Positions 6,147 to 47,800 of a DNA stretch of 64,000 nucleotides are shown one piece after another. The DNA comes from Thermoplasmatota archaeon. Lineage in GTDB: Archaea; Thermoplasmatota; E2; DHVEG-1. The stretch spans positions 906 to 64,905 of the forward strand of contig JAWABU010000004.1 of assembly GCA_038884455.1 (NCBI GenBank), in the 5' to 3' direction. Each line of letters starts with the position of its first letter. Positions within the stretch are counted from its first letter, which is position 1. The notes under the pieces were generated by a model. It was not told the origin of the DNA and made no database searches. It worked only from the letters and a program-made list of their open reading frames with translations. The position numbers were made by a program, and so were the translations under genes.

Positions 6147-6216
6147 AAAATAGACACATGAAGTGTTTGGCTATTGATATGAATATAATGAGGTAGAGTA
6201 AGGGGAAAAGAGAATT

Positions 6217-8079: not shown

Positions 8080-8085
8080 AACAGG

Positions 8086-10359
8086 GTGATTGCAATGAAC
8101 AAGAAAATAGTTCCCTTTATTCTTTTCTTTTTGCTTCTTTTTAGTTCTTGTGTTGGTGCAGGTTTTTTTTCGTTGCAGTCGTCAGATCCAACGATGTTAG
8201 TTCGAGTTGATCTGAGCATGCAACAGGTTGTGTTACCTCGGGGTGTGGAAATAGCAAGCATGGTTCCTGAGAGTTATGTTGATATTTTTATCCAACAGAG
8301 CCGTCTTTCAGAACTTCGAGAAAAAACATCAGCATATCGTGTTCTGATTGAAGATGTTGATCTGTATAGTAGTCAGTTTATTGGTCAGTATCACACCCTT
8401 GCACAAATCGAACAAATCCTTGCTGACACGGCTGCAAGCTACCCGTCGATCACCAAATTAACAAGTATTGGATCAACCTATGAGGGTCGAAATATTTATT
8501 GTCTTGAAATTTCTGATAATCCTGGTGTTGATGAAGACGAACCAGGTGTACTCTTTATGGGTTTGCACCATGCACGCGAATGGCCGACGGTTGAGATATG
8601 TTTGTATATTCTCAGTCAGTTAACTTCACAGTATGGAAGTGATTCGATGTTGACAAACCTGGTAGATACTCGTCGTGTTTGGATTGTTCCTTGTGTGAAT
8701 CCTGATGGGTATTACTACTGTCATGATCAGGGTCATGACTGGCGGAAAAACCGGCAGTATTTCTCCCAGTTTGGAACCATAGGTGTTGATCTGAATAGGA
8801 ATTATGATGGTACGTGTAATGGTGAACCTATGGGTGCATGGGGATCTGTGATGAATGGAGCAGCAACGCATTCACCTAATCAAGAAACCTATTGCGGTCC
8901 AGCTGCTTTTTCCGAGTATGAAACCCAAGCTATTAAAAACATGTTTCTAACCAATGATATTTGCGCTTCGATTAGCTGGCATACCTATTCTGAATTGGTT
9001 CTCTGGCCGTGGGGGTATGCAACCAACGAACAGACACCAGATAATACGTATCTGAAACAAGTTGGTCAGGGTATTGCTGCTCGTATCACCAAGCAATCTG
9101 GTTCTGGTACGTATACCCCGCAGCAAAGCGCAGCGTTGTATCCAACCACCGGTGATACTGATGACTGGGCATATGGCTATGCACATTATATTCAGGGAAG
9201 AAATACGTTTGCATATACAATTGAAGCTTGTTCTCAGTTTCAACCACCAGCCTCCAAGCTTGATCAGATATGTGCTGAGAATTTTGATGGTGCACTGTTT
9301 CTTCTAAAGGAAGCTGCAAATATAAGTGCACTGATCCCACGACCATTGCCACCGGTTCTCACTGTACCTTCGAGTGATCCTGATGGGAACTATCTTGTTT
9401 CATGGACTGAGCAGAACCCTTCTGCTGGTGTTGATTGTTTTCAGCTTGATGAACTCAGTCGTTTTCATGTTTTAGTTGATGATGCAGAATCATCAGAGAT
9501 TCAATGGACTTTGATTGGTTTTACCAAAAGTTCAGATCAGATGCATTCCGGTACACAAAGCTACAAAGCCAAGAATCAGAATAATTATGTTTCTTCAATG
9601 ACCAGTAACTATGCAATGCCGGTTACGAGTGGTATGATTTTGTCGTTTTGGACATGGTATAGCATTGAGAATCAATGGGATTATGCGTTTGTTGAGGTGA
9701 GCCGTGATGGGCGGAAGTATGACGTCCTTGATGCGTATACTGGTTCCTCATCAGGTTGGGTGCAGAAACAATATGATCTCAGTAGTTATGCTGATAACTC
9801 GGTTTTTATCAGGTTGCGATATACGACTGATGATGAAACGCTCGGGTCTGGTTTTTATGTTGATGATATCAGCCCGGTTCCAGTGTTTGACCAGAGTGTG
9901 ACGCTTTCTGATACTATTGGGGATACATCATTTGAGGTTTCTGGCAAAGCAAATGGGACGTATTACTATCGTGTCCGAGCTCATAATACTGTTCGTGGGT
10001 GGGGTGACTATAGCATGCTTCAAAAAATACTGGTTGGTAGTGGTGAGGATACCCAGCCGCCCAGTGTTCAGATCATGGTTCCTGCTGAGAAAAAACTGTA
10101 TCTTGGATCAAGGATGTTTCCGTTTTTTGTAACCCTTGTGATTGGGCGTATCACCGTTGAGGTTAGTGCTGTGGATGCATCTGGGATTGATCAGGTTGAG
10201 TTTTATCTAGATGGTATATTTGTTGGAAATGATACCGAGGAACCATATACCTATGCATGGGTGCAGAAAAGCTTTGGGAAACATGTTGTAGCAGTGATTG
10301 CTGTTGATACGTATGCAAATCAGGCTTCACAGGAAATAGCCGTGTGGAAGTTTTTCTGA
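8086..10359 (+). CDS. secreted zinc carboxypeptidase (peptidase M14) with C-terminal Ig-like domains
   Basis: M14 zinc-binding motif GLHHAREWPTVEI (HxxE). Signal peptide with SSC lipobox-like site. Only 6 nt after the upstream clan CD gene. Confidence 0.8.
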   Translation: MIAMNKKIVPFILFFLLLFSSCVGAGFFSLQSSDPTMLVRVDLSMQQVVLPRGVEIASMVPESYVDIFIQQSRLSELREKTSAYRVLIEDVDLYSSQFIGQYHTLAQIEQILADTAASYPSITKLTSIGSTYEGRNIYCLEISDNPGVDEDEPGVLFMGLHHAREWPTVEICLYILSQLTSQYGSDSMLTNLVDTRRVWIVPCVNPDGYYYCHDQGHDWRKNRQYFSQFGTIGVDLNRNYDGTCNGEPMGAWGSVMNGAATHSPNQETYCGPAAFSEYETQAIKNMFLTNDICASISWHTYSELVLWPWGYATNEQTPDNTYLKQVGQGIAARITKQSGSGTYTPQQSAALYPTTGDTDDWAYGYAHYIQGRNTFAYTIEACSQFQPPASKLDQICAENFDGALFLLKEAANISALIPRPLPPVLTVPSSDPDGNYLVSWTEQNPSAGVDCFQLDELSRFHVLVDDAESSEIQWTLIGFTKSSDQMHSGTQSYKAKNQNNYVSSMTSNYAMPVTSGMILSFWTWYSIENQWDYAFVEVSRDGRKYDVLDAYTGSSSGWVQKQYDLSSYADNSVFIRLRYTTDDETLGSGFYVDDISPVPVFDQSVTLSDTIGDTSFEVSGKANGTYYYRVRAHNTVRGWGDYSMLQKILVGSGEDTQPPSVQIMVPAEKKLYLGSRMFPFFVTLVIGRITVEVSAVDASGIDQVEFYLDGIFVGNDTEEPYTYAWVQKSFGKHVVAVIAVDTYANQASQEIAVWKFF

Positions 10360-16730: not shown

Positions 16731-18620
16731 ATGAAGAATACAAAAACGTTGATGATCGTCAGTATGCTTCTTTGGAGTGGTTTTGGAGCTAGTATCATCC
16801 AAGCAACAAATAATCAAACCTATGAAACAATGCAGGTTGTTGTATCGTTTTCTCAGCCGATAGTTACCAATGGAAACGATGGGCTGTCGGTTTCTCTTGC
16901 TGAGGCAACATCTGTCTTAAATACACCTGGCGGGTATATGCTTCCTCAGGTTACCAAAGTTTTTAGTTTTCCGTTTCGCACACAAATCATTGGTATAGAC
17001 GTGGTTTTTTCCGATATAACAACACAACTACTACCACAAGAACCTGCTCGTGCAACTCAACCAGTCTCTGATCTTGGTTTTTCAGCACATATTGAAGAAA
17101 TAGATCTCTCAACATATACACTGTATCCTGAAAATCAGTATAGTTATTCACTTGCAACAGGTCGTCAGGGTGACAGTATCGTACTTTTTATTGTTGTACG
17201 GTTAACTCCTGTTCAGTTCAACCAGAAAGACATGCTGCTTACAACTGCAAAAACCGCTGATATTACCATTACTTATAGAGTACCAGAACATCCAACCATA
17301 CTTGCTGATACCTATGATTTACTTATCATTACTCCTGATGATTTTGCTGCTGCAGTAGAACCCTTGGTTGTTCATAAGAATGCGATGGGGGTTCAGACAA
17401 AACTGGTTACCCGATCTGAGATCTGCGCTGGAACCTATTTCCCTGCGCAGGGTCGTGATTGTGCTGAGGAGATGAAATATTTCATTAAATCTGCATTGGA
17501 ATCCTGGGGAATAAAATATGTTCTTTTGGTTGGCGGCCGGAAAGGAGGCGTTATGCAGGAGAAATGGTGGATGCCGGTTCGCTATTCAAATCTTGATGAT
17601 TCCTCTGGTTTTGAGGCAAGTTATCTGTCTGATTTGTATTTCGCTGATATCTATGATGCCTATGGAAATTTCTCAAGCTGGGATACAAATGAAAACGGTG
17701 TTTTTGCTGAATGGAAAGGTGCTACCAGGGATATTCTTGATATGTATCCTGATGTGTTTGTCGGTCGTCTTGCGTGTTTGAATACCCGTGAGGTGAAGCT
17801 TATGGTTGATAAGATTATTACCTATGAGACTGAAACATATGGGTCTGCATGGTTTAAGCGTTTTATTGGCGTTGCTGGTGATACCTATCCTGGGCCAACA
17901 GATCCGTATTATGAAGGGGAACGTGCGAATGAAGCTGCGTTTAATCTGCTTGAAAGTTCTGGTTTTACCGCAACTATGGTATGGACATCCAATGGTATAT
18001 TTACTGGAAAAAAGCCGGTGATTGATGCGTATAGTAAGGGTGCTGGTTTTGTGCATTTTTCAGGGCATGGTAATCCGAATGCATGGGGTAATCACCCACC
18101 GCATAATGATACGTTTATTAACGGACCGACGTCCTTTGAGATGGGGAAATTAAAGAATAAAGAAATGCAGCCGATTGTGATTGTTGGCGGATGTCACAAT
18201 GCTCAGTTTAATACAAGTTTGTTGAATATTGTAAAAGGTGTACTTACTGATGGCCTTCAGTATTTTAGTACAAAGTCTCCACTGGGAAAATACTGGTATC
18301 GGGAATGGGTTCCCCGATGTTGGGCTTGGGCGATGGCTGCACAGAAAAACGGCGGGTGTATTGCGATTATGGCAAATACTGGTCTTGGGTATGGACAACC
18401 TGGTGAGAATTGCTTAACGATGCGTGGGCGGTTCCTTGAAGTCTTATTTTTCCGGAGTTACAGTGAGGGAAAAACAGTACTTGGTGAAACTCATGGGCAA
18501 GATATGATCTATTACATGCATGAATATCCTCCGATGAGCAATGTGATTGATTGTAAGATTGTTCAGCAGTGGGCATTGCTTGGTGATCCAAGTCTTCAGA
18601 TTGGAGGATATCCAAATTAG
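16731..18620 (+). CDS. secreted clan CD cysteine peptidase (gingipain/C25-like), paralog of 6217..8079
   Basis: Signal peptide. FSGHGNPNAWGNH (His) and IVIVGGCHNAQFNTSL (Cys). Long stretches near-identical to the 620-aa paralog (VLLVGG.KG...VPVRY.NLDD...). TATAAATTA box at ~16703. Confidence 0.65.
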   Translation: MKNTKTLMIVSMLLWSGFGASIIQATNNQTYETMQVVVSFSQPIVTNGNDGLSVSLAEATSVLNTPGGYMLPQVTKVFSFPFRTQIIGIDVVFSDITTQLLPQEPARATQPVSDLGFSAHIEEIDLSTYTLYPENQYSYSLATGRQGDSIVLFIVVRLTPVQFNQKDMLLTTAKTADITITYRVPEHPTILADTYDLLIITPDDFAAAVEPLVVHKNAMGVQTKLVTRSEICAGTYFPAQGRDCAEEMKYFIKSALESWGIKYVLLVGGRKGGVMQEKWWMPVRYSNLDDSSGFEASYLSDLYFADIYDAYGNFSSWDTNENGVFAEWKGATRDILDMYPDVFVGRLACLNTREVKLMVDKIITYETETYGSAWFKRFIGVAGDTYPGPTDPYYEGERANEAAFNLLESSGFTATMVWTSNGIFTGKKPVIDAYSKGAGFVHFSGHGNPNAWGNHPPHNDTFINGPTSFEMGKLKNKEMQPIVIVGGCHNAQFNTSLLNIVKGVLTDGLQYFSTKSPLGKYWYREWVPRCWAWAMAAQKNGGCIAIMANTGLGYGQPGENCLTMRGRFLEVLFFRSYSEGKTVLGETHGQDMIYYMHEYPPMSNVIDCKIVQQWALLGDPSLQIGGYPN

Positions 18621-18679
18621 TCGGTTTTTCGTTTATAGACAATTAGTCAGGTGATGCAATGATATTTTAAGGTGCCTCT

Positions 18680-19969
18680 ATGAACCATGGCGCATATTTT
18701 GGAGTGATGCTTTGTTGTTTTCTATGCATCGGTGTTATCCAACAGCCGTATTATGTTCAATCCGCTGGTGCAACTAGTTCTGATCAAACAGAAGATATTC
18801 TTGAGATGATCAGTCAGGTTGATGAAGGACTTGTGCAAAACTATGTTACAAAGCTTTGTGCGTTTCGACCACGGTATACTGGAACTACGCTGTGTACTCT
18901 TGCAGCTCAGTATCTATTTGATGAGTTGAGTTCTATGGGTCTTGAAACTAGTTTTCATGAGTGGTTCTATAAGGGTTTTAGAAGTAGGAATGTGGTTGCA
19001 ACACTTCCTGGTACTGATCCAGAGAGTACTGCTGTTTTTATTATCTGCGGGCATTATGATACTGTGGAAGTATCACCAGGTGCTGATGATGATGCGTCTG
19101 GTGTTGCATCGGTGCTTGCCTGTGCTCGTATTATGAGTCAGTATTCTTTTCCTCATACGATACGTTTTATTGCTTTTTCTGGTGAAGAGGTTGGAACACT
19201 GGGGAGTTTTTCGTATGCACGTGATGCGTATCGGCAGGAAGACAATATTGTTGCAGTATTAAATCTTGATATGGTTGGATATGCAAACAGTGCTGAGGGT
19301 GGAAGCACTCTTCGGTTTTTTCCAGCACCGCGAGCACGGTGGATAGCAGATTTTGCAGAAAGCATCAGTGAAAAATACAAGGATATCATTGATATGAATG
19401 TTGAGATTCTTCCATGTTATATTGGTTCTGATGCGCAGCCTTTTATTGATTATGGGTATGATGGTGTATGGATTGCGCATCATGATGGGTATTCCTGGGG
19501 CCATTCAGCAGATGATGTTCCTGAGCATTTGAATTACACGTATCATGCAAAAGCAACTCGTTTTATGCTTGCGGTGCTTGCTGAGTTTGCGATTAAACCC
19601 CTACCGGTTCAGGTGATTATTAAAACACCGTTGGAAGGGTATGGGTATTTTTTTGATCGACCTACGATAAAACTTGATCTTGGTAAACAGTGGTATAAAG
19701 GCCTCCGGGGGATCACGATTGCCATCGGTCGTCCTGTTGTTCGGGTTGATGTTCTGAGCAGTGAACCGATTAAGTATGTTGTTTTTTGTGTTGATGGGAA
19801 TTTTATGTATTGGGATAGTCAAGCGCCGTTTGAATGGAAACTAGGAGGTTTGCATTATCCACTGGTTGGTCGACATACACTTCAGGTCTATGCGTATACA
19901 ACTGAGGGAAACAGTGCTGTAGATGAGATGCAAATTATTATACTCACATTTTCATGTCAGTATTCATAA
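18680..19969 (+). CDS. secreted M28 family aminopeptidase with C-terminal Ig-like module
   Basis: Signal peptide. M28 metal-site motifs HYDTV...GADDDASGVA...FSGEEVG. AAGGTG RBS. Confidence 0.8.
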   Translation: MNHGAYFGVMLCCFLCIGVIQQPYYVQSAGATSSDQTEDILEMISQVDEGLVQNYVTKLCAFRPRYTGTTLCTLAAQYLFDELSSMGLETSFHEWFYKGFRSRNVVATLPGTDPESTAVFIICGHYDTVEVSPGADDDASGVASVLACARIMSQYSFPHTIRFIAFSGEEVGTLGSFSYARDAYRQEDNIVAVLNLDMVGYANSAEGGSTLRFFPAPRARWIADFAESISEKYKDIIDMNVEILPCYIGSDAQPFIDYGYDGVWIAHHDGYSWGHSADDVPEHLNYTYHAKATRFMLAVLAEFAIKPLPVQVIIKTPLEGYGYFFDRPTIKLDLGKQWYKGLRGITIAIGRPVVRVDVLSSEPIKYVVFCVDGNFMYWDSQAPFEWKLGGLHYPLVGRHTLQVYAYTTEGNSAVDEMQIIILTFSCQYS

Positions 19970-19976
19970 AAGAACA

Positions 19977-20687
19977 ATGATACGTATGGCAAAAAGTATT
20001 GGTTTCCTTGCTGTTTTTCTGGTGACTTGTTCGTTTGCTTCATCGTATCATGTGGTATGTACAAATGAACTGATTATTTTTCCCTCTTCACCGGTTGTGC
20101 TGGTTACCGGTTTTGAGCCTTTTGCTGATTTTGATATTAATCCGTCGCAGATAATCGTTGAGGAACTCCAGAATCAAACAGTTCATGGTCTGCAGGTTGT
20201 TGGGGTGGTATTGCCAGTTAATTTTACTTCTGCTGATATGATACTTGTTCAGGTACTCCAGCACTATCAACCGTTTCTCATGATCAGTCTTGGTTTGTCA
20301 CCCAAGGCAACTACTCTTGAAGTTGAGACATGGGCTGTGAATATGAAACGATATCCGCTTGATTCAGGAAGGTGGTCGTTTCCTCGAAAAATAGAGCAGG
20401 ATGGTCCTTTGCTTCGTTTATCATCCCTCAATACCCGTGCGGTTATTCGGGAGTTGAAAAATCATGATATCCCATCGGAGCAGAGTTTTTTTGCTGGTAC
20501 GTATCTCTGTAATTATGTATTTTACCGAGCACAAAGCATTGTGAAAACAATGGATCTTTCTACTCATGTTGGTTTTATACATGTCCCCCTCCTTGATGTG
20601 CAAAGTCAACACGGTATGAAACTTCAAACTATGGTTGATGGCGTGAAAGTAGTCATTGGTTTGTACTCTACTTCAAACAGCATATGA
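19977..20687 (+). CDS. pcp: pyroglutamyl peptidase I (C15) with N-terminal signal/anchor
   Basis: VLVTGFEPFADFDINPSQ core and a conserved C-terminal region. N-terminus MIRMAKSIGFLAVFLVTCSFASS is hydrophobic. Start chosen downstream of the M28 stop. Confidence 0.75.
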   Translation: MIRMAKSIGFLAVFLVTCSFASSYHVVCTNELIIFPSSPVVLVTGFEPFADFDINPSQIIVEELQNQTVHGLQVVGVVLPVNFTSADMILVQVLQHYQPFLMISLGLSPKATTLEVETWAVNMKRYPLDSGRWSFPRKIEQDGPLLRLSSLNTRAVIRELKNHDIPSEQSFFAGTYLCNYVFYRAQSIVKTMDLSTHVGFIHVPLLDVQSQHGMKLQTMVDGVKVVIGLYSTSNSI

Positions 20688-23538: not shown

Positions 23539-24864
23539 ATGAAACATATTCAAAAAACACAGATAACATCAAGTATTATTGTCTTCTGCTTTTTCGTTTC
23601 AGTACTACCTGCTGTTTCCTCTTCTTTTATCGGCGCACCACAATCACCGGGTGTTTCTCAGGATTCTACTCATCTCTCAACGGATTTATATAACCCAAAA
23701 GTTGCTGCAGCACTCAGTCAAATCACTGAGGGTCGTCTTCGTGAGATTCTTACAGTGCTTGTTGGTTTTTCTCCACGGTTTACAGGAACCTATGGATGCG
23801 AACAAGCAGCAAACTATATCTATGATTTTTTTCAGAGTAACCATCTTCAAACGCGGTACCACAACTGGAGCTCATGGGGGAACGAGTATCATCGACGGTT
23901 TTTTTCCAGCAGAAACATCGAAGCAACCATCCCTGGAACAGACAAGAAGAATACTGTTCTTTTGTTCAGTGCACACTATGATGGTGTGAAAAGTGCTCCT
24001 GCAGCTAATGATGATGGCAGCGGTACGGCGGCAGTTCTTCTTTCAGCTGCAGTTTTGAATCAATTTAGTTTTAACCATACTTTGAAGTTTGTAGCTTTTT
24101 CTGGTGAAGAAATTGGTTTGCTAGGTAGTCACGCTTATGCAAAAGAATCCTATGAAAATCATGAGAACATTTTGTTGAATATCAATGCAGATATGATTGG
24201 TCATGCCGAAACCAGTGAAGGCGGGAGCAGAATGGGTATTTCTTCATCAGAAGATCTAGCTTGGCTTTTTGATATTGCTGATAGTCTTTGTAGTATCTAT
24301 GATATTGATTTGACGATAAGTCGTGGTAGTATCAATCGTGATGGTCGCGGCTGGAGCGATTATTTTTCTTTTATTGAATACGGCTATGAGGCATTTGCCT
24401 GTTGGGGCGGAGAACATGATCCAAATATGCATACTTCAAAGGATGACCTAAACAATGTAAATTTTTCCTATCTTGTAAAAACCACTCGTTTGATTACAGC
24501 ACTGCTTGGAACACTGGCTGATTACGAGGATTTTTACCCCCAAGTGACAATTGCATCACCTCGAATTGGAAAGCTCTACATTGAAGGAAGAGAAAAACGT
24601 AGCATCGGTGATCTCAAAACTATAGTTCTTAATGATATCTGGATTTGGGCTGATGTTCGCTATGCTTCAGTGCCGATTCTCCGCGCTGAGTTTTATCTCG
24701 ATGATCGTCTCATGTATACTGATACGCAGGTCCCGTTCTCTTGGCAGTTCAATAAATTTTCAGTGGGGACCCACCGAGTGACGATACTTGTGTATGATGA
24801 ACTGGGGAGAAAATCTTCTGAGTATCGAGATATTCGTTTCATTAATCTTTTACTTAAAAAATAG
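23539..24864 (+). CDS. secreted M28 family peptidase with C-terminal Ig-like module
   Basis: Signal peptide. M28 motifs HYDGV...ANDDGSGTAA...FSGEEIG. C-terminal ~100 aa homologous to the C-termini of 18680..19969 and 8086..10359. Confidence 0.8.
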   Translation: MKHIQKTQITSSIIVFCFFVSVLPAVSSSFIGAPQSPGVSQDSTHLSTDLYNPKVAAALSQITEGRLREILTVLVGFSPRFTGTYGCEQAANYIYDFFQSNHLQTRYHNWSSWGNEYHRRFFSSRNIEATIPGTDKKNTVLLFSAHYDGVKSAPAANDDGSGTAAVLLSAAVLNQFSFNHTLKFVAFSGEEIGLLGSHAYAKESYENHENILLNINADMIGHAETSEGGSRMGISSSEDLAWLFDIADSLCSIYDIDLTISRGSINRDGRGWSDYFSFIEYGYEAFACWGGEHDPNMHTSKDDLNNVNFSYLVKTTRLITALLGTLADYEDFYPQVTIASPRIGKLYIEGREKRSIGDLKTIVLNDIWIWADVRYASVPILRAEFYLDDRLMYTDTQVPFSWQFNKFSVGTHRVTILVYDELGRKSSEYRDIRFINLLLKK

Positions 24865-24952
24865 GTTTTTCTGGGAGGAATATTTAAAAACCGGTTTGAT
24901 TTCTCCATTTGTACACTGCATCCTATTTTTGATGAAGGGAGAAAAGAAGAGT

Positions 24953-25966
24953 ATGAACAAGAGCAGGAAGATACTATCATATATGGAGGTATTCGTCATT
25001 TTGTTTTCAATGGGTTCCATGGTTCTCATTTCGTTTGATAGCCATGCACTACAGATTGGACCCGAAATAACAATTACCACTGATCAGCTAGAATATTATC
25101 CTGGTGAGCAGGTTTCCATTTCTGGTCGTATACTCAATGATGGTCAAGGAGTCCCCTCATCTCCTCTCTGTGTACACGTGAACGATTCTGAAGAAAACAT
25201 GATTTTTGGTACCTGCGGACTGTCAAATAATTATGGAAATTATACATTTACTTTTTCATTAGACGAATATGCACTGCTTGGTACCTATCATGCAGAAGCA
25301 CACTCATATCAGTTTGATATTAAAACGACAACTTCCTTTGAGGTCGTATCAACTGTAGTGATAGTTGAGATATCAGGACCTTGTAACGGTGTCACAGGTG
25401 TTCCTGTATCGTTCTTCGGCTCGGCAACTGGTGGCAAAAAACCGTATAGCTGGCTGTGGAATTTTGGAGATCAGCAGATCTCCGCTGAACAAAACCCACA
25501 TCATATCTATTCAACTCCTGGAAATTACACGGTTGTTCTCACAGTTACCGATACAGATGGTCATACCGGTACCGATCTGCTACTAATCACAATTCTACCT
25601 GGTGAAAATCAGACACCAAATCAGCCTATGATCTCGGGTCCGTCATCCGGAAAAATAAAAACTGAATATACCTACAATCTTTCAGCAGTTGATCCCGACG
25701 GAGATCAAGTGTATTTTTGGATTGAATGGTGTGAAAATTGTGTTGAGCCACAGTGGATTGGGCCATATGATTCTGGCGAAATCGTACCGGTACAGCACGC
25801 CTGGGAAAAGAAAGGAATGTATACCATCAGGTTGAAGGCAAAAGATACCATGGGTGCTGAGAGTGCATGGACAACGTTTGAAGTGAGCATGCCGAAGGAA
25901 AACCGTATCTTCCGCAGTATGTTTTTCTGGTTCTTGAAAAGTCGTTTTCCTCGTTTTTTTGGGTGA
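24953..25966 (+). CDS. secreted PKD-domain protein
   Basis: Signal peptide. PKD motif WLWNFGDQQISAEQNPHHIYSTPGNYTVVLTVTDTDGHTG. Start set at the internal Met after the M28 stop. Confidence 0.7.
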   Translation: MNKSRKILSYMEVFVILFSMGSMVLISFDSHALQIGPEITITTDQLEYYPGEQVSISGRILNDGQGVPSSPLCVHVNDSEENMIFGTCGLSNNYGNYTFTFSLDEYALLGTYHAEAHSYQFDIKTTTSFEVVSTVVIVEISGPCNGVTGVPVSFFGSATGGKKPYSWLWNFGDQQISAEQNPHHIYSTPGNYTVVLTVTDTDGHTGTDLLLITILPGENQTPNQPMISGPSSGKIKTEYTYNLSAVDPDGDQVYFWIEWCENCVEPQWIGPYDSGEIVPVQHAWEKKGMYTIRLKAKDTMGAESAWTTFEVSMPKENRIFRSMFFWFLKSRFPRFFG

Positions 25967-26063
25967 TTATACACTTTGTTGGTCGTATGACATGCCTTTC
26001 AATGTGCGATTTGTAGACATCCTATTCTTTTTTATTCTTTAAACCTATCTCTGTGTTGGTAGT

Positions 26064-28058
26064 ATGCAACGTGGGCTCTCAGCATTTGACCTCATGGTCG
26101 TCGTTCATGATCTTCAAAATAGTATTGGTAGCTATATTGAAAATATCTATCAGATAAGCCGTGATGAGATTCTGATCAAGATCACAAATAAAAATACGCA
26201 TGAAAAAGAAATCATTTTCATTAGAAATGAAGAACTTATCTGCATCACACAACAGAAATTCAACGTTCCTGAAAAACCATCAGTATTTGCGATGACGCTT
26301 CGGAAATATCTACAAAATGGGCGCATCACCAACATAACGCAACATATGTTTGATCGGATCATTTTTATTTCCATTGGTCGTGCTGATGGGGAATACACCT
26401 TAGTTGTTGAGTTAATCCCTAAGGGGAACATTATTCTGCTCAATTCAGAGTCAGTTATTCTTGCCTCGTTGATTCGTCAGCAATGGGCCCATCGAACCAT
26501 AAAAATACATGAAAAATATGTACTGCCGCCCTCGCAGATAAACCCTTTCGAACTATCGTATCAAGTATTTGCAGATCTTCTTAAAAGAAGTACGAAGGAT
26601 CTTGTTCGTTTTTTTGCTGTGAATCTGAATTTCGGTGGAGCCTATGCTGAGGAGTTATTATCGCGTATCGGTATGGATAAAACCATAAAACCTCACAATC
26701 TTTCTGAAGTAGATATTCAAAAACTTTTTGACGCCATGCAACAATTTTTAGACATCTTCCGCCAGAAACAATTTGAACCATATCAAGTTCGGAGAGATTC
26801 TGCGATTGTCGATGTGATCCCAATATTGTTTAAAAGCTACGCTGCTGAAAATTTAGAACTCTGTGGATGTTTCATTTCAGGCCTTGAAGCGCTGATTAGT
26901 CAAAGAAAACAAACTAAAAAAACAATAGCGACTTCTCTAGTAAAAAGAGAGGCGCTCCATCGGCAATTGCGACAACAGCAAGAATCAATTCAAGAATTTC
27001 AAAAAAGGATGCTAGAAAAACAAAAAGAAGGAGAGCTAATCTATCATTATCAGCAAGCTCTTGATCAAATTCTTACTACAGCGGTTGATGTTCTTAAACA
27101 AAAAGATAAAACCGAAGGTCTTGGACTTCTTAAAAAACATCAGATGGTTTCTGATGTCAATTTTGAGAATCAAACGATAACCGTCCTTCTTCGTGATACT
27201 GATAATACTGAATATCAAGTGATTTTAGATATCTATAAAAGCGTATCTGAGAATGCGCAAAATGCGTATGCTGAACGTAAAAAACTCTCAGAAAAAATTA
27301 AAGGTGCACTTGAAGCTGTTGAACAAACAAAAGCTGAACTAGCCAATCTTGAAAAACACATGCAACAAGAGGAACGAGAACAACATCGAGCGATCAGCAC
27401 AGAGAAAAAATCTGAAAAAACGTATTGGTTTGAACAGTTCCGCTGGTTTATCACTTCTGAAGGCAATGTAGTTGTCGGTGGAAAAGATGCAAAATCTAAT
27501 GAACTTGTGGTTAAAAAATATCTTCGCGATGGTGATCGGTATGTTCATGCCGATGTTCATGGAGCGCCCAGTGTTATTGTAAAAACAAAAAATATCCATG
27601 ATGAACACCTATCAATTTCTGAGAAAAGCCTTGAGGAAGCATGTATATATGCTGCTTCATTCTCAAAAGCATGGAATCAGTTTGCTGAAGCACAAGCATA
27701 CTGGGTGCATCCTGAGCAGGTGAGTAAAACACCGCAGAGTGGTGAATATGTTCCGAAAGGTGGTTTTATTATCCGGGGGAAACGGAATTACCAGCGGTGT
27801 ACGCTTGAACTTGCCGTGGGAAAAATCAATCTCGATGGTATCGAAAAACTCATGTGTGGACCCGAGCGTGCTGTACAAGCATATACTGATCGGTATCTTG
27901 TTGTGGTTCCGGGTGGCATGAAAAAGGCGATTGTGGCAAAAATCATAGCACGGACGTTTGCTGTATCTGTGGAATCAGTTGAGCAGATTCTTCCTCCGGG
28001 TAATATGCAGATCAGTCGCAGCGTTGGTCTGACCGTTGAAGAAGGTGATTACCCGTGA
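26064..28058 (+). CDS. NFACT-family protein (archaeal Rqc2/FbpA homolog)
   Basis: N-terminal NFACT-N-like region, a long coiled coil and a C-terminal NFACT-R-like region (..DRYVHADVHGAPSVIVK..). Confidence 0.7.
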   Translation: MQRGLSAFDLMVVVHDLQNSIGSYIENIYQISRDEILIKITNKNTHEKEIIFIRNEELICITQQKFNVPEKPSVFAMTLRKYLQNGRITNITQHMFDRIIFISIGRADGEYTLVVELIPKGNIILLNSESVILASLIRQQWAHRTIKIHEKYVLPPSQINPFELSYQVFADLLKRSTKDLVRFFAVNLNFGGAYAEELLSRIGMDKTIKPHNLSEVDIQKLFDAMQQFLDIFRQKQFEPYQVRRDSAIVDVIPILFKSYAAENLELCGCFISGLEALISQRKQTKKTIATSLVKREALHRQLRQQQESIQEFQKRMLEKQKEGELIYHYQQALDQILTTAVDVLKQKDKTEGLGLLKKHQMVSDVNFENQTITVLLRDTDNTEYQVILDIYKSVSENAQNAYAERKKLSEKIKGALEAVEQTKAELANLEKHMQQEEREQHRAISTEKKSEKTYWFEQFRWFITSEGNVVVGGKDAKSNELVVKKYLRDGDRYVHADVHGAPSVIVKTKNIHDEHLSISEKSLEEACIYAASFSKAWNQFAEAQAYWVHPEQVSKTPQSGEYVPKGGFIIRGKRNYQRCTLELAVGKINLDGIEKLMCGPERAVQAYTDRYLVVVPGGMKKAIVAKIIARTFAVSVESVEQILPPGNMQISRSVGLTVEEGDYP

Positions 28059-29098
28059 AAATCGTTTTTCAGGATCATAAAACCGGTGAACTGAAAATAA
28101 TCGCTGAAAATCTTGATGATCTCTGGCATTTGTATCATATCATTGAGGAAGGAGATTTGGTTCGTGGAGTCACATTTCGTACTGATGAACAGCCGGGTGA
28201 TAAACTTCGATCGAAAAAACCTGAGAAAAAAAGAATGAAGCTCGGCATCCGGGTTGAAAAGGTTCAGTTCCATGAGTTTTCTGATCGGCTTCGAATCCAA
28301 GGAGTTATTGAGGAAGGACCGCAGGATATAGGTTCGTATCACACGTTCAATATTGATGCCGAGAGTATGGAAGCGTTTTCGATTGTGAAGGATCAATGGA
28401 AGGAGCATCAGCTGGAACGCATTAATGAGGCGGTGAAGCAGCGCATGCAGCCAGTTCTTGTTTTTGTAAGTCTTGATGAAGATACTGCAACCGTTGCGAT
28501 TCTTCGGCAGAGTGGCGTGCAGTGGATTGCTGATGTTGATTCGAAACGATCTGGGAAGATGTATGAAAGTAAGGAAACAAGCTATGAGTATTTTGGTGAC
28601 ATTGTTGGTATTCTGAAAACCTATGTGACTAAAGAAACACCTCTCGTGGTGATTGGTCCTGGTTTTACTCGCGAACATTTTATAGCATTTGGTAAATCCA
28701 AGTATGCTGAGTTGTTTTCAAATGTTCAGACACATGCAACAAGTCATCCTGGAATGAATGGTATTCATGAGGCGTTAAAACTTGGTGTAGTTGAGCAGAT
28801 CACTAAGGATAATCGGGTGTCACTTGAGACACGTCTGGTTGAGAAACTTTTTGAGGAGATTAAAAAAGATGGATGTGTAACATATGGTGCTGCGGAGGTT
28901 GAGGATGCCTTGCATCGAGGTGCAGTTGAGCGATTGTTAATTTCCGATGTTTTTGTTCGCAGTAAGAAAGGAGAACAACTGTTAGAGCTTGCTCGGCAGA
29001 CCCGGAGTGATTTCACCATTATCAATTCATTACATGAAGCTGGGAGAAAATTTGAACATCTCGGTGGTGTTGCAGCGTTACTAAGGTTTAAAATTTAA
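28055..29098 (+). CDS. pelA: Pelota/Dom34 ribosome rescue factor
   Basis: Typical Pelota N-terminus (KIVFQDHKTGELKIIAENLDDLWHLYHII) and an eRF1-like C-terminal domain. GTG start overlaps the upstream TGA stop (GTGA). Confidence 0.85.
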   Translation: MKIVFQDHKTGELKIIAENLDDLWHLYHIIEEGDLVRGVTFRTDEQPGDKLRSKKPEKKRMKLGIRVEKVQFHEFSDRLRIQGVIEEGPQDIGSYHTFNIDAESMEAFSIVKDQWKEHQLERINEAVKQRMQPVLVFVSLDEDTATVAILRQSGVQWIADVDSKRSGKMYESKETSYEYFGDIVGILKTYVTKETPLVVIGPGFTREHFIAFGKSKYAELFSNVQTHATSHPGMNGIHEALKLGVVEQITKDNRVSLETRLVEKLFEEIKKDGCVTYGAAEVEDALHRGAVERLLISDVFVRSKKGEQLLELARQTRSDFTIINSLHEAGRKFEHLGGVAALLRFKI

Positions 29099-29116
29099 AT
29101 AAAAAAGATTTCGTTT

Positions 29117-29857
29117 TTAGATGTATCTGCTGCAGCCTGTTTTGAGAATCATCGAAAGATACGGAGGTTCCCAAGTATCATCCGTGTTGTAGGTATTTTG
29201 ATGTGTGTTTTTTGTTTCTTCTTTCGTTTCGCTGATCAATGCGTTAAAGTAGGTGTAGGTTATTTTTACGTCGAAATCGTTTCCTTTATCTCTGAGGTAT
29301 TTGAAGAATCTGAAGATTTTTTCACCGGTTTGTACTTTGACGTTAATAGTGAATGTTTCATCAGCGGTTTTATAGTAGTCTGCTTTGATGGCATCTTCTG
29401 CATCTGAGAGCGTTGATGCTTGTATAGTTGTAATCGTTGGAAGTGTGTTCATTCGGAACGTCAGAGTCATGGTACCGTTACCGGTTTGTTTTTCGGTTTT
29501 GGTTTGACCTTTTCCGGTTACATCAACCGTGAGGGTATCTAATCCTTTTTTCCTGAGGAGTCCATAGGTGTGATCATCAGTCCAGGAAAGCTCAATTGTT
29601 ACTTCGAGGAGGTTGTCTTGGGTAAGTGTAATTTCTTTGGAGTATGGTTTGTTTTTGCTCGTATAGAGCTCGTCGTTGAGCTGGTATGTCCCTGAAGAAG
29701 TCTGCCAGGCGACCTGGTATGTGGTTTCACCAGGTGGTGTATGTTCATTGTTTGTTTTCTCTGGTGGGACGTACACAGCGATACCGACACCGGCAATAAC
29801 AAGAACCAATACGCCGATAATAATAACTATTTTATCGTTTTTCTTTAAACTGACCAT
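29117..29857 (-). CDS. membrane-anchored hypothetical protein
   Basis: N-terminal TM segment (IVIIIGVLVLVIAGVGIAVYV) followed by a Thr-rich extracellular region. Confidence 0.5.
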   Translation of the reverse strand: MVSLKKNDKIVIIIGVLVLVIAGVGIAVYVPPEKTNNEHTPPGETTYQVAWQTSSGTYQLNDELYTSKNKPYSKEITLTQDNLLEVTIELSWTDDHTYGLLRKKGLDTLTVDVTGKGQTKTEKQTGNGTMTLTFRMNTLPTITTIQASTLSDAEDAIKADYYKTADETFTINVKVQTGEKIFRFFKYLRDKGNDFDVKITYTYFNALISETKEETKNTHQNTYNTDDTWEPPYLSMILKTGCSRYI

Positions 29858-30014: not shown

Positions 30015-31025
30015 TTAGTCAGAGATTATCGGAAGAATCGTCCCGCAATACATACATCGTTTATTGTTTACTCCTGTAAGTTGTATTGAGAACCCATGGC
30101 GTTCGATAACGGTTTTGTGGCAGATGGGGCATCTGGTGTTTTCGTAGGAACCATGAGCGATATTTCCAAGATATGCGTAGAGTAATCCTTGGTTTTGTGC
30201 ATGTGAATAAATAGTAATCATAGTTTCTTTCGGGGTTGCCGGTAGGTTTGTCATCTGGTGGTCTGGATGGAATCTGGTAAAATGAACCGGTGTTTCTCGA
30301 CCAAGTTTTTCAAGAACCCATCGGCAAAACTTGTTAATTTCATCTAACGTGTCATTGTATCCTGGGATTACAAGATATGTTAATTCGACATGAATTCCAA
30401 GATTTTTTGCAAGCTCACAAGTGTTTAGAACAGGTTCAAGTCGTGCGGTACAGATTTTGTGATAAAATGATTCCGTGAATGCTTTCGCATCAATATTCAT
30501 TGCATCTAAATACTGGGAGAGTTCCCTGAGCGGGTCTTCATTGATATATCCATTGGTTACATAGACGGTAGCAAGTCCTTGTCTTTTTGCATATTTCATT
30601 GTGTCATAGGCGTATTCATGCCAAATTGTTGGTTCGTTGTACGTCCATGCGATACCTCTACAGTTATGTTCTTGGGCGATTGCAACTGTTTGTTCAGGAG
30701 TAAGTTCTCGAAAAGGAAAATGATAGGGTTGTGCTGTTGAAATACTTGCATTCTGACAGTGAGCGCATTTCATGGTACAACCTACAGATCCGATCGATAA
30801 TACCAATGATCCTGGATAGAAATGATACAATGGTTTTTTTTCAATGGGGTCATCAGCAATCGATGAACAAGACCCATAAATCAGAGAAATCAGTTTTCCT
30901 TGCTTGTTTTCACGGACACCACAAATTCCGCGTCTTCCTGAAGGAATCGTACATTGATGTGGACATAATAAACATTGGACCTGTTGATTATCCAGGGGCC
31001 GCCAGAATTTTGCTTCATGATGCAT
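30015..31025 (-). CDS. AmmeMemoRadiSam-system radical SAM enzyme
   Basis: CxxxCxxC motif (GCTMKCAHCQN) with N- and C-terminal Cys clusters typical of the pyruvate-formate-lyase-activase-like AmmeMemoRadiSam family. Confidence 0.7.
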   Translation of the reverse strand: MHHEAKFWRPLDNQQVQCLLCPHQCTIPSGRRGICGVRENKQGKLISLIYGSCSSIADDPIEKKPLYHFYPGSLVLSIGSVGCTMKCAHCQNASISTAQPYHFPFRELTPEQTVAIAQEHNCRGIAWTYNEPTIWHEYAYDTMKYAKRQGLATVYVTNGYINEDPLRELSQYLDAMNIDAKAFTESFYHKICTARLEPVLNTCELAKNLGIHVELTYLVIPGYNDTLDEINKFCRWVLEKLGRETPVHFTRFHPDHQMTNLPATPKETMITIYSHAQNQGLLYAYLGNIAHGSYENTRCPICHKTVIERHGFSIQLTGVNNKRCMYCGTILPIISD

Positions 31026-42890: not shown

Positions 42891-44179
42891 CGTTGAGGTT
42901 CACCTATACATGTTCCATAGCCTGGTTTTCCAACCAAGGTGTAGTCATCGATAATCTGTTCTCCTCTGACAAAGACATGTAGGGGAAAGAGAGCAGGCAT
43001 TCCTTCAAATGGAGTCCAACCGCATTTCGAATGAAGAGCGTCCGCATGTATTGTTTGCAGTTTTTTAAAGTCAATGACAATAAAATCTGCGTCTCTGCCG
43101 ATTTCAATTTTACCTTTCGGAATGCCAAGAATCTGTGCCGGCCGTTCACAGAGAAGTGATATCATCTGCCGAAATGAAAGAGCATCTTTTTTAACCTCGG
43201 CAAGCAGTAACGGATACATGGTTTCAACACCAGGGATTCCTGAAGGTGCTTTGTCAAACTCAGTTTCTTTTTCAGTAAGCGTATGTGGTGCATGATCTGA
43301 TTCAAGAACATCGATACTATTATTTTTTATGCCATACCAGAGCGTTTCTCGATCGAATCCTGATCGAAGCGGCGGATTCACTTTATACCACGTTTCATTA
43401 CCCGAGATAGTATCGCAGTCAAAGTAGAGATGATGGGGTGTTACGCCAACGGTGATATGTGCAGGTCGTCTGCGGAGAAGTTCAAATCCTTCAAGAGATG
43501 ATAAATGGCAGATATGAACCGGTGTTGTGATCTGTTTTGCATGCGTGAGGATATTTTTTATCGCCGTAACTTCGCATTCTGAAGGGCGCGCCTGTACATG
43601 ATCCTTTAAATTTCGTTCTACAATCGTATGTTGTTGCAAGCAGGTTTCTGATTCTGCGTGGATCAGGGTTACTTTTTTAGTATGCATAATTTCTTCAAAT
43701 GCGACCTGGAGATTACGTTCATTGAGGTGTAGCGTATTTGTACTCGCTCCTAAAAATATTTTAAAACCATTGCAAACCGAACCAAGTTCTTGTGCCTGGT
43801 TGATGTTCGTATCAGTTATTGCTGCATAGAGGCCAAAATCAACATAGCTTTTTTTCTCAGCAAGTTTTTTCTTCTCACGTATTGCTTCAACAGTGATTGT
43901 CTGAGGATTCGTGTTTGGCATATCATACACACACGATATTCCTCCGTAAGCTGCTGCTTTTGATCCTGAAGAAAAATCTTCTTTTTTTGGAAATCCTGGG
44001 TCGCGGAAATGAACATGCAGGTCGATACCAGCGGGAAGAATAAGTTTTGAGCCGAAGCTGATATGATCATCTGATTTCAAGGTTTTTTTAATCTCACTGA
44101 TCTTTCCCTGTGTAATGCCAAGGCAGCATGATTCAAACGTGCCGTTGATGTAGATTTTTCCTTCAATTGTGCGATCCAT
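42887..44179 (-). CDS. pyrC: dihydroorotase-like cyclic amidohydrolase
   Basis: DLHVHFRDPG metal-binding motif and an amidohydrolase fold. Start set at the internal Met (MDRTIEGKIYINGTF) to avoid overlap with AMMECR1. Confidence 0.75.
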   Translation of the reverse strand: MDRTIEGKIYINGTFESCCLGITQGKISEIKKTLKSDDHISFGSKLILPAGIDLHVHFRDPGFPKKEDFSSGSKAAAYGGISCVYDMPNTNPQTITVEAIREKKKLAEKKSYVDFGLYAAITDTNINQAQELGSVCNGFKIFLGASTNTLHLNERNLQVAFEEIMHTKKVTLIHAESETCLQQHTIVERNLKDHVQARPSECEVTAIKNILTHAKQITTPVHICHLSSLEGFELLRRRPAHITVGVTPHHLYFDCDTISGNETWYKVNPPLRSGFDRETLWYGIKNNSIDVLESDHAPHTLTEKETEFDKAPSGIPGVETMYPLLLAEVKKDALSFRQMISLLCERPAQILGIPKGKIEIGRDADFIVIDFKKLQTIHADALHSKCGWTPFEGMPALFPLHVFVRGEQIIDDYTLVGKPGYGTCIGEPQR

Positions 44180-44786
44180 CGAGTTTTTTCTCCTGTATTG
44201 TTCCTTTCGGTGTTTGTTCAGCAAAAATCTGACCGGTGAATTTTGAAATTCGTATGTCTTTATCAAACCAAGCATCTGGGAGAAGTCCCGCTTTCATGCA
44301 GGTTTGTGAAAGGAATTCTTCGGTATCCCAGCCTTGTTCGACGGGAACCTGCGGGAGGAGCAGACCTGCAAAGAACCCTTGTTCAACAATAAGACCGTCT
44401 CGTCCGATTTTGATATGTTGAGGATATTCTGATGGTTTTGAGACAGTAATGAGTTCTGGTTTTGTCAGAATAGTTACTTCGACAACAATGCTGTCGAGTT
44501 CTTCTTTTCTGAGTGGGGGAAAGCGTGGATCATGGGTTGCTGAGACCGCTGCATCGGTGATCGCGTGTTTGAGTTGCTTGACCGGGAGAGGTATCCCGAT
44601 GCATCCTCTCAGTTGATATTCTGGGTAGGTGTGAATAGTAACGAAAACTCCATGTTTTTCAGAAAATGTTGCTGGAAGGTTTTGTACTTCAAGTTTTTGA
44701 TGTTGAACGTGTTGTTCGATGGTTGTTCGTGCAAGACGAACTGCTTGAATTCCATCTTCTTGTGATAGCATCATAGCAAGAACCAC
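44163..44786 (-). CDS. AMMECR1-domain protein
   Basis: Conserved AMMECR1 block ..LRGCIGIP... Confidence 0.75.
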   Translation of the reverse strand: MVLAMMLSQEDGIQAVRLARTTIEQHVQHQKLEVQNLPATFSEKHGVFVTIHTYPEYQLRGCIGIPLPVKQLKHAITDAAVSATHDPRFPPLRKEELDSIVVEVTILTKPELITVSKPSEYPQHIKIGRDGLIVEQGFFAGLLLPQVPVEQGWDTEEFLSQTCMKAGLLPDAWFDKDIRISKFTGQIFAEQTPKGTIQEKKLDGSHN

Positions 44787-44852: not shown

Positions 44853-47800
44853 TTATCCTTCTATCTCTCGGAGTAGGATAATATCGTAAGTTCTGGCGAT
44901 GTCAACTTCGTCTTCTCGTAGGTCGAGATATCCAGCAAAACGATACGTTACGTTTTGACCGAGTTCTTGTCTAGTTTCTTCAACGGTCACATTGTAGCGT
45001 CCTGGTTTAAGTTCAACGGTATATCGACCATGTTCATCTGATCTTTTTGATGCATATTGTGCGGTGTTATTTTCGTCAGAATAATCAGGTATAAAGTCGA
45101 TTGAGATGTTAGCTGTTGGTAAACCGTTGTACAGCGTTTTACCTTGGATGGTTACTGATTTTTTAAGAAGTGCAATATTATAGGTTGCAACACCTTGGCC
45201 GATTGGTATATCCAGAGCTCCAGTAAAGCTGTAGAATCCTTGTTCACCATCGTAATTCACCGTGACGTTGTATGAACCTGGTTGGAGTTGTACAGAATAC
45301 ATACCAGTTTCATCAGTAGTTGCAGATGTGCTCTGAGCAGTATTATTCTTCACAGATCTGTTCGCAGTAAATTGTATAGGTATGTTACCAAGAGGTGTCG
45401 TTCTATGTTGAGTTGATCCTGTGACCGTAATTGGTGCGTAGGTGATTGAGATATTTTGAACCTTTGTTTTGTTTGCCTCAAGGTTGATGGTTTGTTCTTT
45501 TGCATAATCAAGATATTTTGTGGTACTGTTGCGTTTGGTGACATTGAGGACATAATTCCCAGGTATAATAGAGCTAAATGAGTATGAACCATCAGCACCG
45601 GTAATCATCGTGTTGACGACTTTTCGATCAGTTTCTGTATAAATCAGTTCAACAGTGACATCAGGCATTTCTTCTCCATGGTCAACTTTGTTGTTTTTGT
45701 TTGCATCAAAGTAGACGATACCGTTGACTGCAGCTGGTTGTGGTTTTGACATGTTATACGTGTTGTTCCCCGGGTAGATAAACACATAGTTTTCATGGAT
45801 TCTGAAATCGTCATATACTGCTTGGATTAGATAGATACCAGGCATGAGATCTGATGCCTGGTAGTATCCATGTTCATCAGTGGTGAGTTGTCGTAGATTT
45901 TCATAACCATATTCTTTTGGCTGACCAGGACGTGTTGGGTCATTGAGGGGGTAGAATTCTTTGATTTCTATGAGCGTAATTGAAGCATTATGAAGCGGTG
46001 TATCGATCGATGTATTATAGGATTCATCATAGTCGTTGTTTGCATATACGTAGCCTTGGATAACTCCGGGTATAACTTCGATGTTGAGCGTCCGTTCGTA
46101 GTTTGTTCCTTGTTTTCGCATTGCTTCATCATCGGTAATGGGTGCTTGTTCTGGATCAGTTTCACTGTTGAAATGAACGGCTTTTATGGGAAATGCATTC
46201 ATCCCGAGCTCTGGATTTCGCCGTAACTCAAGAGTTATGTTTCCTGCAGGTGCAATGACTTGGAACATGCCGTTAGCTGCTTTTGTAGTATCATGATCAA
46301 TTCCAAGAGATGTTCCATATAATGAAATGTTTTTCCGTACAACTACTTGGACGTCCAATGGTTCACCTTTGTACGTTATTGTTCCGTTGATTTTTGCTCC
46401 TTCATAATATTTTGCAATTACGACCGAAACAAATCCTTGAGTTCCCGGGTAGGGTAATGTTGAAACGTAATCTGCGGTGAAATGTTTTAGACCCCAACAG
46501 GGGACTTGAAGGAGCTGATTTTTTACAGTTTCTAAAACTGTACTCTCCCCAAGATAGGTTCGATAGAACATCGTATTGTTATACGCAGGTTTTGATACAA
46601 CTGCAGTATCGGTGATTGAAATACTTCTTCGTTCAGATGCGGACATGGCGTTGAGTTGTGCAGCAGTCCAGGTTTGTTCAGATCCGATCTGCTGGCCGGT
46701 TTGAGGATTGACTTTATAGCCTTTGTATCGTACCTGGATGAAATCATCTTCGGCATTGTGAAACCGTTCACTACTTGCGGTTCGTAATGCATGTAACACT
46801 AGGCTTTTATCACCAAGGAAACCAAAGATGTTGAAAATGTCACGGTCATATCCTTCGGCGCCATAATATCGAATACTTCGTCCGGTTGCTTCTTGGAGAT
46901 CATGGTATAACCAGGTTACTTGCTCTTCAGTTAATGTATGGTTTAAAACCGCGGTGATATCATGATAATACACATTTTCGATAAATTGTTCACCGACAAC
47001 AAGATCTTTACTTAATTCTTTATCATATTCTGATCCGATTGGTTTTAAATATGATGGTGCTTTTTGTGGTTTTTCAATCCAGGAAAGGAGATCAGAATAG
47101 GTAATATTTACATAGGTTACGTTTTTCACGGTAAATGGATCATGGGTGATATTGCTGAGATGTTTTTGAAGCACTGCTACAGTTGTCGGTGAAAATGATT
47201 TTTCATGCTGTTGGAAATCGCCTTCAAGGAGGCGAATGATGAAGACGATGACTGCTTCTTTTTCACTAGTTGCCGTATGGAGGTTAGCTGCAGGTGGTAT
47301 ACCATCTTGGAAGTTGTCAGCAACGGTTGGATGATCACCAACTGCTACTTCATAAAACCCGTAATCCCACCATGAGATGAACGCAGGTCGATCAACTGGA
47401 TTTTCGATATGTGTGTCTTGTTGTTTGAGCCATGAGAAAGCATCAACCCAGTATTGTTCTTTATATGAACTTGAGCCAAATGCTCCTGAAAAGTTTTTTC
47501 CGAAGTAATCGATTTTAAAATTACTCGTTTTATTTTTAGATGCTGCGTAGGGTACTGCTGCATCAAGTGATAAGAAGACATTTGGCATCATAATTAAAAA
47601 GAAGATAAATAAAACGCCAAGAACCTGATACATTTTGATTCCTTTTCTGAGACTTCGGAGTCCACCACCAGCATGTCGAATGTTTTTAATCATGCTGCTG
47701 TAGTTTACTTTTTCAATGAGATACCAGATGACAAAACCTGCAAGGAGTGCAACAACCGGGACAACATCATTGAGGAAACGACCTGCGGTCCCCGCAAGCC

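Follow-up and report, generated by a model that had tools for sequence, protein, structure and literature searches.

The 64,000-nt stretch of DNA analysed here (the window; contig JAWABU010000004.1 of a Thermoplasmatota archaeon, positions numbered from the window start) contains a gene of the NFACT/Rqc2/NEMF family, rqcH, whose 3' end runs into the start of pelota, the gene of the Pelota/Dom34 ribosome-rescue factor. Is this arrangement an archaeal module for stalled-ribosome rescue and ribosome-associated quality control (RQC), as the original prediction proposed, or are two translation genes merely neighbours? Our answer is that rqcH and pelota probably constitute a two-gene operon for stalled-ribosome rescue in this sediment-type archaeon. 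The proposal of a module is supported with the caveats weighed below, since the first protein does carry NFACT domains and the adjacency is not peculiar to this genome.

At the junction, positions 28050-28059 read tacccGTGAa, and the pelota GTG (28055-28057) and the rqcH TGA (28056-28058) have the 4 nt GTGA in common. The claimed overlap of the rqcH stop with the pelota start is thus exact in position and in extent. Taken alone it is unremarkable, 4-nt overlaps being ordinary in the window: at least four further pairs of same-strand open reading frames (ORFs) show them (40824/40827, 42887/42890, 54037/54040 and 61685/61688). What exceeds chance is the identity of the paired genes and the breadth over which the pairing is conserved.

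The 664-amino acid (aa) product of rqcH matches Pfam NFACT_N (PF05833) over residues 8-446 (E 1e-62), followed by NFACT-R_1 (PF05670) over residues 459-572 (E 7e-34). It scores 588 bits, for a cutoff of 400, against the NCBIfam equivalog RqcH_arch (NF041120, “ribosome rescue protein RqcH”, archaeal type), with residues 6-650 aligned to profile positions 1-644 of 645. These three matches bear out the NFACT identity first assigned to the protein. Its closest homologue in the protein collection searched is 65% identical. A sequence search of the PDB with the window RqcH returned human NEMF (1e-51), yeast Rqc2 (9e-23) and B. subtilis RqcH (6e-11), and no archaeal NFACT structure among the entries; by these values the protein is closer in sequence to eukaryotic NEMF than to B. 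subtilis RqcH.

The functional residues of the family are retained. D9 and D97-R98 of the window RqcH fall opposite the corresponding D and the DR motif in NEMF, Rqc2 and PavA; we take these to be the positions changed in variants of Rqc2 and RqcH that are deficient in tailing. All three are invariant in an alignment of 20 close homologues, and R98 is invariant also among 28 diverse archaeal representatives. The AlphaFold2 model (mean predicted local distance difference test, pLDDT, 83) combines a beta-rich N-terminal lobe and an NFACT-R fold with long helices that span 286-344 and 394-445. Its best Foldseek matches are NEMF (9gy4_Z, 3e-39), Rqc2 (8aaf_a, 4e-29) and B. subtilis RqcH (7aqc_R, 2e-23), with global template modelling scores of 0.34-0.38, low values of the kind that a flexible multidomain protein should give; PDB 7ope, titled “RqcH DR variant”, is among the matches. 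The C-terminal ~90 aa (~573-664) are confidently modelled as a folded domain, with a pLDDT of 88-92 over 581-650, and near their end L643-P644-P645-G646 is invariant in the 20-homologue alignment. This C-terminus lies within the span of the RqcH_arch match; Pfam NFACT-C gave no match, neither in the whole protein nor in residues 572-664. A Ribosomal_L23 match in the last 93 aa is weak (E 0.011) and was treated as noise.

The 347-aa product of the second gene scores 289.7 bits against TIGR00111 (pelota), for a cutoff of 177.65, with profile positions 1-351 aligned to residues 1-347. Because this alignment is full length from residue 1, GTG can be taken as the true start of pelota; among 78 aligned homologous junctions the starts are ATG in 51, GTG in 23 and TTG in 4. 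The identity of the protein as aRF1 was rejected (50.5 bits for a cutoff of 234.7). Pfam detects eRF1_1 at residues 1-127 (1e-30) and eRF1_3 at 258-347 (9e-20), while eRF1_2 at 137-248 scores 20.7, below its cutoff of 27.1. The protein nevertheless has the three-domain eRF1-like architecture, and can be aligned over its entire length with the solved Pelota structures of archaea, P. furiosus Pelota being the best PDB match (3j15_A, 3e-73). The GGQ tripeptide is absent from the translation, in agreement with a non-hydrolytic rescue factor. RqcH and Pelota are both ordinary orthologues of known families.

To place the pair among related genomes we used an alignment of homologues as query, the single window RqcH having found no relatives in genome contigs. 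This gave 80 loci from species-representative genomes, all of them Thermoplasmatota metagenome-assembled genomes (MAGs), with RqcHs 37-52% identical to that of the window. The contig continues past rqcH in 77 loci, and in all 77 the next gene is pelota, in the same orientation. The junction is a -4 overlap (ATGA, GTGA or TTGA) in 28/77 and nearly all the others have a gap of 0 to +16 nt, with one outlier at -17 and one at +34. Two loci first seemed to carry an rqcH-pelota fusion (L028 and L040, gap “-1044”); this was a tblastn artefact of reading through the stop, and the true gap is +3.

The genes that follow pelota are also kept across these loci, namely the gene of a 246-aa protein (63/66), that of a Big_7 protein (51/56) and that of a radical S-adenosylmethionine (SAM) enzyme (43/62); AIR-synthase-like genes are among the conserved downstream neighbours too. 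Within-clade conservation alone is therefore no proof of selection. Even at 37% RqcH identity, however, the pair is still present, although the upstream neighbours change, and in the bin of loci under 43% identity the radical SAM gene is found in 0/6.

The signals around the two genes differ (Table 1). In 74/75 homologous loci a TCTTTTTTAA-type box ends ~27-28 nt ahead of the rqcH start codon, and positions -34..-29 are 92-98% A/T across them; a second A/T-rich patch follows the box at about -18..-10. Such spacing suits an archaeal TATA box and implies that the rqcH transcript would be leaderless or have a very short leader, starting at the ATG or a few nt before it. Motifs of the Shine-Dalgarno (SD) type are found before rqcH in just 2/75 loci. 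Before pelota the picture is reversed: an SD-like motif (GGTG, GGAG, GAGG or AGGT) occurs at -16..-4 of the start in 65/78 loci and a TATA-like box in 12/78. An internal pelota promoter was judged unlikely, the 70 nt upstream of the start being coding-like and devoid of a conserved A/T box. The TATA-like box before rqcH, the SD-like motif before pelota, the shared strand and the short junction therefore indicate a single bicistronic operon in which the first cistron is leaderless and the internal one depends on an SD motif; from this we infer co-transcription. Translational coupling by termination-reinitiation at the -4 junction of the window is plausible, given the overlap and the SD-like motif. 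Archaeal transcription terminates at oligo-T runs; the A6 and T5 runs 3' of pelota are probably the terminators of both converging transcripts.

Table 1. Features of the rqcH-pelota locus, of its surroundings and of the compared loci; numbering is that of the window unless a locus is named.
Feature	Position	Strand	Remarks
TATA-like box TCTTTTTTAT	26026..26035	+	putative promoter; read directly; ends 28 nt before rqcH ATG
rqcH, first cistron	26064..28058	+	664 aa, ATG start; archaeal RqcH (NFACT/Rqc2/NEMF family)
SD-like AGGTGAT	28043..28049	+	inside rqcH 3' end, 5 nt before pelota GTG; read directly
GTGA stop/start overlap (-4 junction)	28055..28058	+	sequence read directly
pelota, second cistron	28055..29098	+	347 aa, GTG start; aPelota/Dom34 orthologue
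gap between convergent stop codons	29099..29119	.	18 nt; A6 at 29101-29106, T5 at 29114-29118
246-aa gene	29117..29857	-	N-terminal membrane anchor; convergent with pelota, 18 nt between stops; position conserved in 66 related loci
AmmeMemoRadiSam-system radical SAM gene	30015-31025	-	two genes 3' of pelota; position conserved in 46 related loci
89-aa antisense ORF	25705-25974		ruled out as EMC6_arch by profile scan
peptidase-dense regions	3144-10359, 16731-20687, 23539-25966		PKD/Big_7 surface proteins too
AMMECR1 gene	44163-44786	-	15 kb from rqcH-pelota
STT3/AglB-like oligosaccharyltransferase gene	44853-49136	-	1427 aa
DUF5749 gene and archaeal PTH2 gene	53699-54426	+	overlap 4 nt (54037-54040)
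EMC6_arch/rqcH region	L084:1831-3941, L091:1792-3977, L085:3698-3979		also metagenome loci L092-L154
ERCC4-SAP nuclease gene, group 10	L092:7059-8222, L106:6938-8056	-	single gene between rqcH and pelota
148-aa gene, Pyrococcus abyssi	L081:5947-6393	+	overlaps rqcH 3' end by 4 nt; no Pfam match
divergent RqcH lineage	L172:4001-6220		P0160 and relatives

For a wider sampling 1.8 billion representative proteins were searched, a diverse alignment was made and the contigs of named homologues were inspected; a metagenome scan gave 80 more loci. The pair was counted when pelota lay within 150 nt downstream of rqcH, and lineage groups were labelled by their nearest named reference, labels such as “Methanobacteria-like” being approximate. 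The pair is present in 4/4 Thermoplasmatota-like metagenome contigs and in one further short contig, in Methanocella sp. (gap +96), in a Methanosarcinales MAG (L084, gap -4), in a group 11 euryarchaeal MAG (L091, gap +73) and in one group 12 contig (L089, gap -4), the other (L107) lacking it. It is missing from the Methanobacteria-like (0/32) and Thermococci-like loci (0/7, Pyrococcus abyssi included), from groups 9 (0/19) and 10 (0/8), from groups 3, 6 and 13 (one locus each) and from a divergent Thermoplasmatota RqcH, P0160. The latter and its relatives form a lineage of 720-750 aa proteins with an N-terminal extension of ~70-115 aa. Conservation of the adjacency across archaea, which had been put forward for checking, thus holds for the Thermoplasmatota clade and for four lineages outside it, and fails as a pan-archaeal trait (0/32, 0/7, 0/19). 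The pair is lineage-restricted, yet recurrent across phylum-level distances with different flanks.

In group 10, three loci have pelota 1.1-1.6 kb downstream of rqcH, and in the two of these that were examined a single ERCC4-SAP nuclease gene on the opposite strand lies in between, as if it had been inserted where rqcH and pelota were once neighbours.

On the other side of rqcH, the two MAGs L084 and L091 have EMC6_arch divergent from rqcH and then ABCE1, the gene of the ribosome-splitting ATPase. Profile scans of the window ORFs found neither ABCE1 nor EMC6_arch nor Mut7-C adjoining rqcH-pelota. In many euryarchaeal loci outside the Thermoplasmatota the small membrane-protein gene EMC6_arch (PF19094) stands upstream of rqcH and divergent from it, at a distance of 20-450 nt: 10/10 in group 10, 18/32 in the Methanobacteria-like loci and 4/7, as weak matches, in the Thermococci-like loci. 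The EMC6_arch-rqcH association is thus wider than that of pelota with rqcH, while being absent from the clade of the window. Our literature search found no paper that ties EMC6_arch to RqcH; this recurrent neighbour might be a further link to quality control of membrane-protein synthesis.

Several observations weigh against the operon as a selected rescue module. Within the clade, synteny is nearly as strong for the genes 3' of pelota as for the pair itself, and much of the 77/77 could reflect shared ancestry. Strict termination-reinitiation coupling is not conserved, because 49/77 relatives carry a spacer and not an overlap; in Haloferax volcanii, -4 overlaps support termination-reinitiation and a spacing of ~20 nt abolishes coupling (PMC6728339; PMC10666635). 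The pairing is absent from most other sampled euryarchaeal lineages and from one divergent Thermoplasmatota, and adjacency is therefore not required for function. The published archaeal NFACT neighbourhood, with its Mut7-C RNase and AMMECR1, is not seen beside the window rqcH, and no demonstration of archaeal RqcH activity was found in our literature search.

Part of this would be expected if two housekeeping translation genes were neighbours by inherited synteny without any selected function, their co-transcription being incidental. That explanation accounts for the conserved block 3' of pelota, for the lineages that lack the pair and for the commonness of -4 overlaps in the window. We consider it improbable all the same. 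It leaves unexplained that the pair holds down to the most distant relatives of the clade while the upstream neighbours change and the radical SAM gene is lost, that the division of labour between promoter and SD motif is conserved, and that, outside the clade, the pair is found again in four or more lineages, where wholly different genes flank it. Twice it is accompanied there by ABCE1, a third factor of the same pathway. Drift alone would hardly account for this.

Selection could also have acted through a physical RqcH-Pelota complex, or a direct hand-off on the ribosome, with the overlap ensuring co-translational 1:1 assembly. The -4 junctions of the 28 relatives and of L084 and L089 would suit such a scheme, whereas in most relatives the two genes are separated by +3 to +16 nt and do not overlap. 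The two proteins, moreover, work on different particles: in the solved complexes Pelota sits in the A site of an intact ribosome, and RqcH/NEMF at the interface of the large subunit set free by splitting. We therefore give this scheme very little credence. No more can be given to the idea that the NFACT protein is an RNA-modifying or RNA-processing enzyme and not a tailing factor, its link with Pelota then being the handling of RNA damage at stalled ribosomes. The NFACT-N fold does resemble Fpg/Nei glycosylases, Fpg being returned by Foldseek for the RqcH model (E ~3e-4), and an RNA-modification role has been proposed from this likeness (PMC4075521, PMC6514570). The ribosome-bound NEMF, Rqc2 and RqcH nevertheless match far better, both in structure and in sequence. 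The conserved D9 and D97-R98 are, moreover, presumably those altered in tailing-deficient variants, and the Mut7-C and AMMECR1 neighbours that prompted the idea do not adjoin the window rqcH.

The stalled-ribosome rescue operon is thus the reading that we retain, and it suggests the following sequence of events. A single TATA-box promoter ~30 nt before the rqcH ATG would drive a leaderless or short-leader bicistronic mRNA, from which Pelota would be translated as an internal cistron by means of the SD motif in the rqcH 3' end and of the GTGA overlap. This arrangement would allow termination-reinitiation, so that both proteins could be made together in a fixed ratio. When a ribosome stalls on an mRNA that is truncated or obstructed, its A site being empty, Pelota would be delivered to that site by aEF1-alpha and would recruit ABCE1, which would split the ribosome. 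RqcH would then bind the resulting 50S subunit, still bearing peptidyl-tRNA; on the model of its bacterial and eukaryotic (Rqc2/NEMF) counterparts, the NFACT-N domain of RqcH (D9, D97, R98) would recruit charged tRNA and a template-free C-terminal tail would be added, after which the tailed nascent chain would be released and degraded. A single mRNA would in this way keep two factors in matching supply, the one that gives rise to obstructed 50S subunits and the one that clears them. The structures matched here establish A-site recognition and splitting for the Pelota/Dom34 of archaea and eukaryotes, and binding of 50S-peptidyl-tRNA and tailing for bacterial RqcH and for Rqc2/NEMF of eukaryotes; in this organism the activities of both proteins are expected by homology. 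The window also has a peptidyl-tRNA hydrolase gene, PTH2, 26 kb from the operon. It is a housekeeping gene with nothing that ties it to rqcH-pelota, and its product is one enzyme that might free tailed chains from their tRNA.

Compared with bacterial RqcH (B. subtilis YloA, which with RqcP/YlmH performs Ala-tailing on 50S-peptidyl-tRNA), the window protein has in common NFACT-N, the helix-hairpin-helix, the coiled-coil/M region, NFACT-R and the DR motif, and the structures 7aqc, 7as8 and 8s1u match its predicted fold; both settings are prokaryotic and without ubiquitin. It differs by the extra conserved C-terminal ~90 aa with the invariant L-P-P-G, which bacterial RqcH lacks. The upstream splitter of B. 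subtilis is MutS2 and not Pelota/ABCE1 (PMC10897456), and bacterial rqcH has no conserved gene neighbourhood (PMC4075521). Eukaryotic Rqc2/NEMF is the best match in sequence and in structure (9gy4_Z, 8aaf_a), shares D9 and the DR motif, and acts after a ribosome splitting that Dom34/Pelota-Hbs1-ABCE1 can perform. It is however longer (1038-1076 aa vs 664 aa), its gene is unlinked to that of Dom34/Pelota, and eukaryotic RQC includes Listerin, Rqc1 and the ubiquitin system, none of which is part of the window operon. With respect to the archaeal Pelota-aEF1alpha-ABCE1 rescue system (P. furiosus 3J15, A. pernix 3WXM), the window Pelota is a full-length three-domain orthologue, also without GGQ. 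In the structurally studied species, as seen in Pyrococcus, pelota is not beside rqcH, whereas in the window it comes second in the rqcH operon.

The gene context of archaeal NFACT proteins has been described before, with a different partner. Burroughs & Aravind (2014) reported a pan-archaeal neighbourhood composed of a Mut7-C RNase with a Zn-ribbon and of AMMECR1, and the main text of their paper mentions Pelota 0 times (PMC4075521). The family is the same, as is the logic by which operon context points to a role at RNA or the ribosome; here the partner is Pelota. No Mut7-C domain was detected by Pfam among the window ORFs scanned, AMMECR1 lies at a distance (Table 1), and neither is among the conserved gene clusters of the 80 related loci. 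The AmmeMemoRadiSam-system radical SAM gene and AMMECR1, 13 kb further on, may be a dispersed remnant of the published neighbourhood. The 148-aa gene of Pyrococcus abyssi that overlaps the rqcH 3' end may be the Mut7-C-type partner published in 2014. A later paper on release factors by the same authors (2019) treats Dom34 and Rqc2 separately and leaves the role of archaeal Rqc2 to future work (PMC6514570), and a 2022 study in Pyrococcus has archaeal RQC only as “suggested” (PMC9540759). A targeted full-text search, with most subscription papers outside its scope, brought up no paper that describes rqcH and pelota as an operon. We regard the operon link as modestly new and claim no priority, as gene-context databases would show the adjacency. 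The original prediction had said that the module appears to be little studied; this is right for archaeal RQC, but the two gene families themselves are well known and named in NCBIfam and UniProt.

For eukaryotes and for Bacillus there are good accounts of RQC; in archaea, the lineage ancestral to the eukaryotic system, it is essentially unexplored. The conserved operon is direct genomic evidence linking the trigger of splitting (Pelota) to the handler of the split large subunit (RqcH) in archaea, and the arrangement, with ABCE1 adjoining in some lineages, points to a Pelota/ABCE1 splitter over an RQT- or MutS2-like factor. The ABCE1/EMC6_arch/RqcH/Pelota neighbourhood is a modestly new context that makes concrete the hypothesis that Pelota/ABCE1 feeds RqcH. 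We put forward, as a tentative proposal that may well prove wrong, that Pelota/ABCE1 splitting is the dedicated entry to RqcH tailing, and that rqcH-pelota, in places with divergent EMC6_arch and ABCE1 upstream, would be a compact co-regulated prokaryotic RQC module and the ancestral core of eukaryotic RQC. The pair also occurs in organisms that can be cultured, Methanocella among them, and these lend themselves to tests of the prediction. What the locus offers is a source of hypotheses; it reveals no new protein family or mechanism.

By Pfam and NCBIfam profiles the neighbours of the pair in the window are an M28 peptidase, a PKD protein, the 246-aa membrane protein and the radical SAM enzyme. 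The 246-aa protein received no family assignment, its match to DUF7510 being weak (E 0.002). Scans for tRNA genes and Rfam families found none within the 64-kb window. The window is rich in predicted secreted peptidases (a C1 papain-like, two C25 gingipain-like, an M14 carboxypeptidase, two M28 and a C15 pyroglutamyl peptidase), a set that is typical of protein-degrading sediment Thermoplasmatota. Further along, the predicted STT3/AglB-like oligosaccharyltransferase ends in C-terminal CarboxypepD_reg/SdrD-like beta-sandwich repeats.

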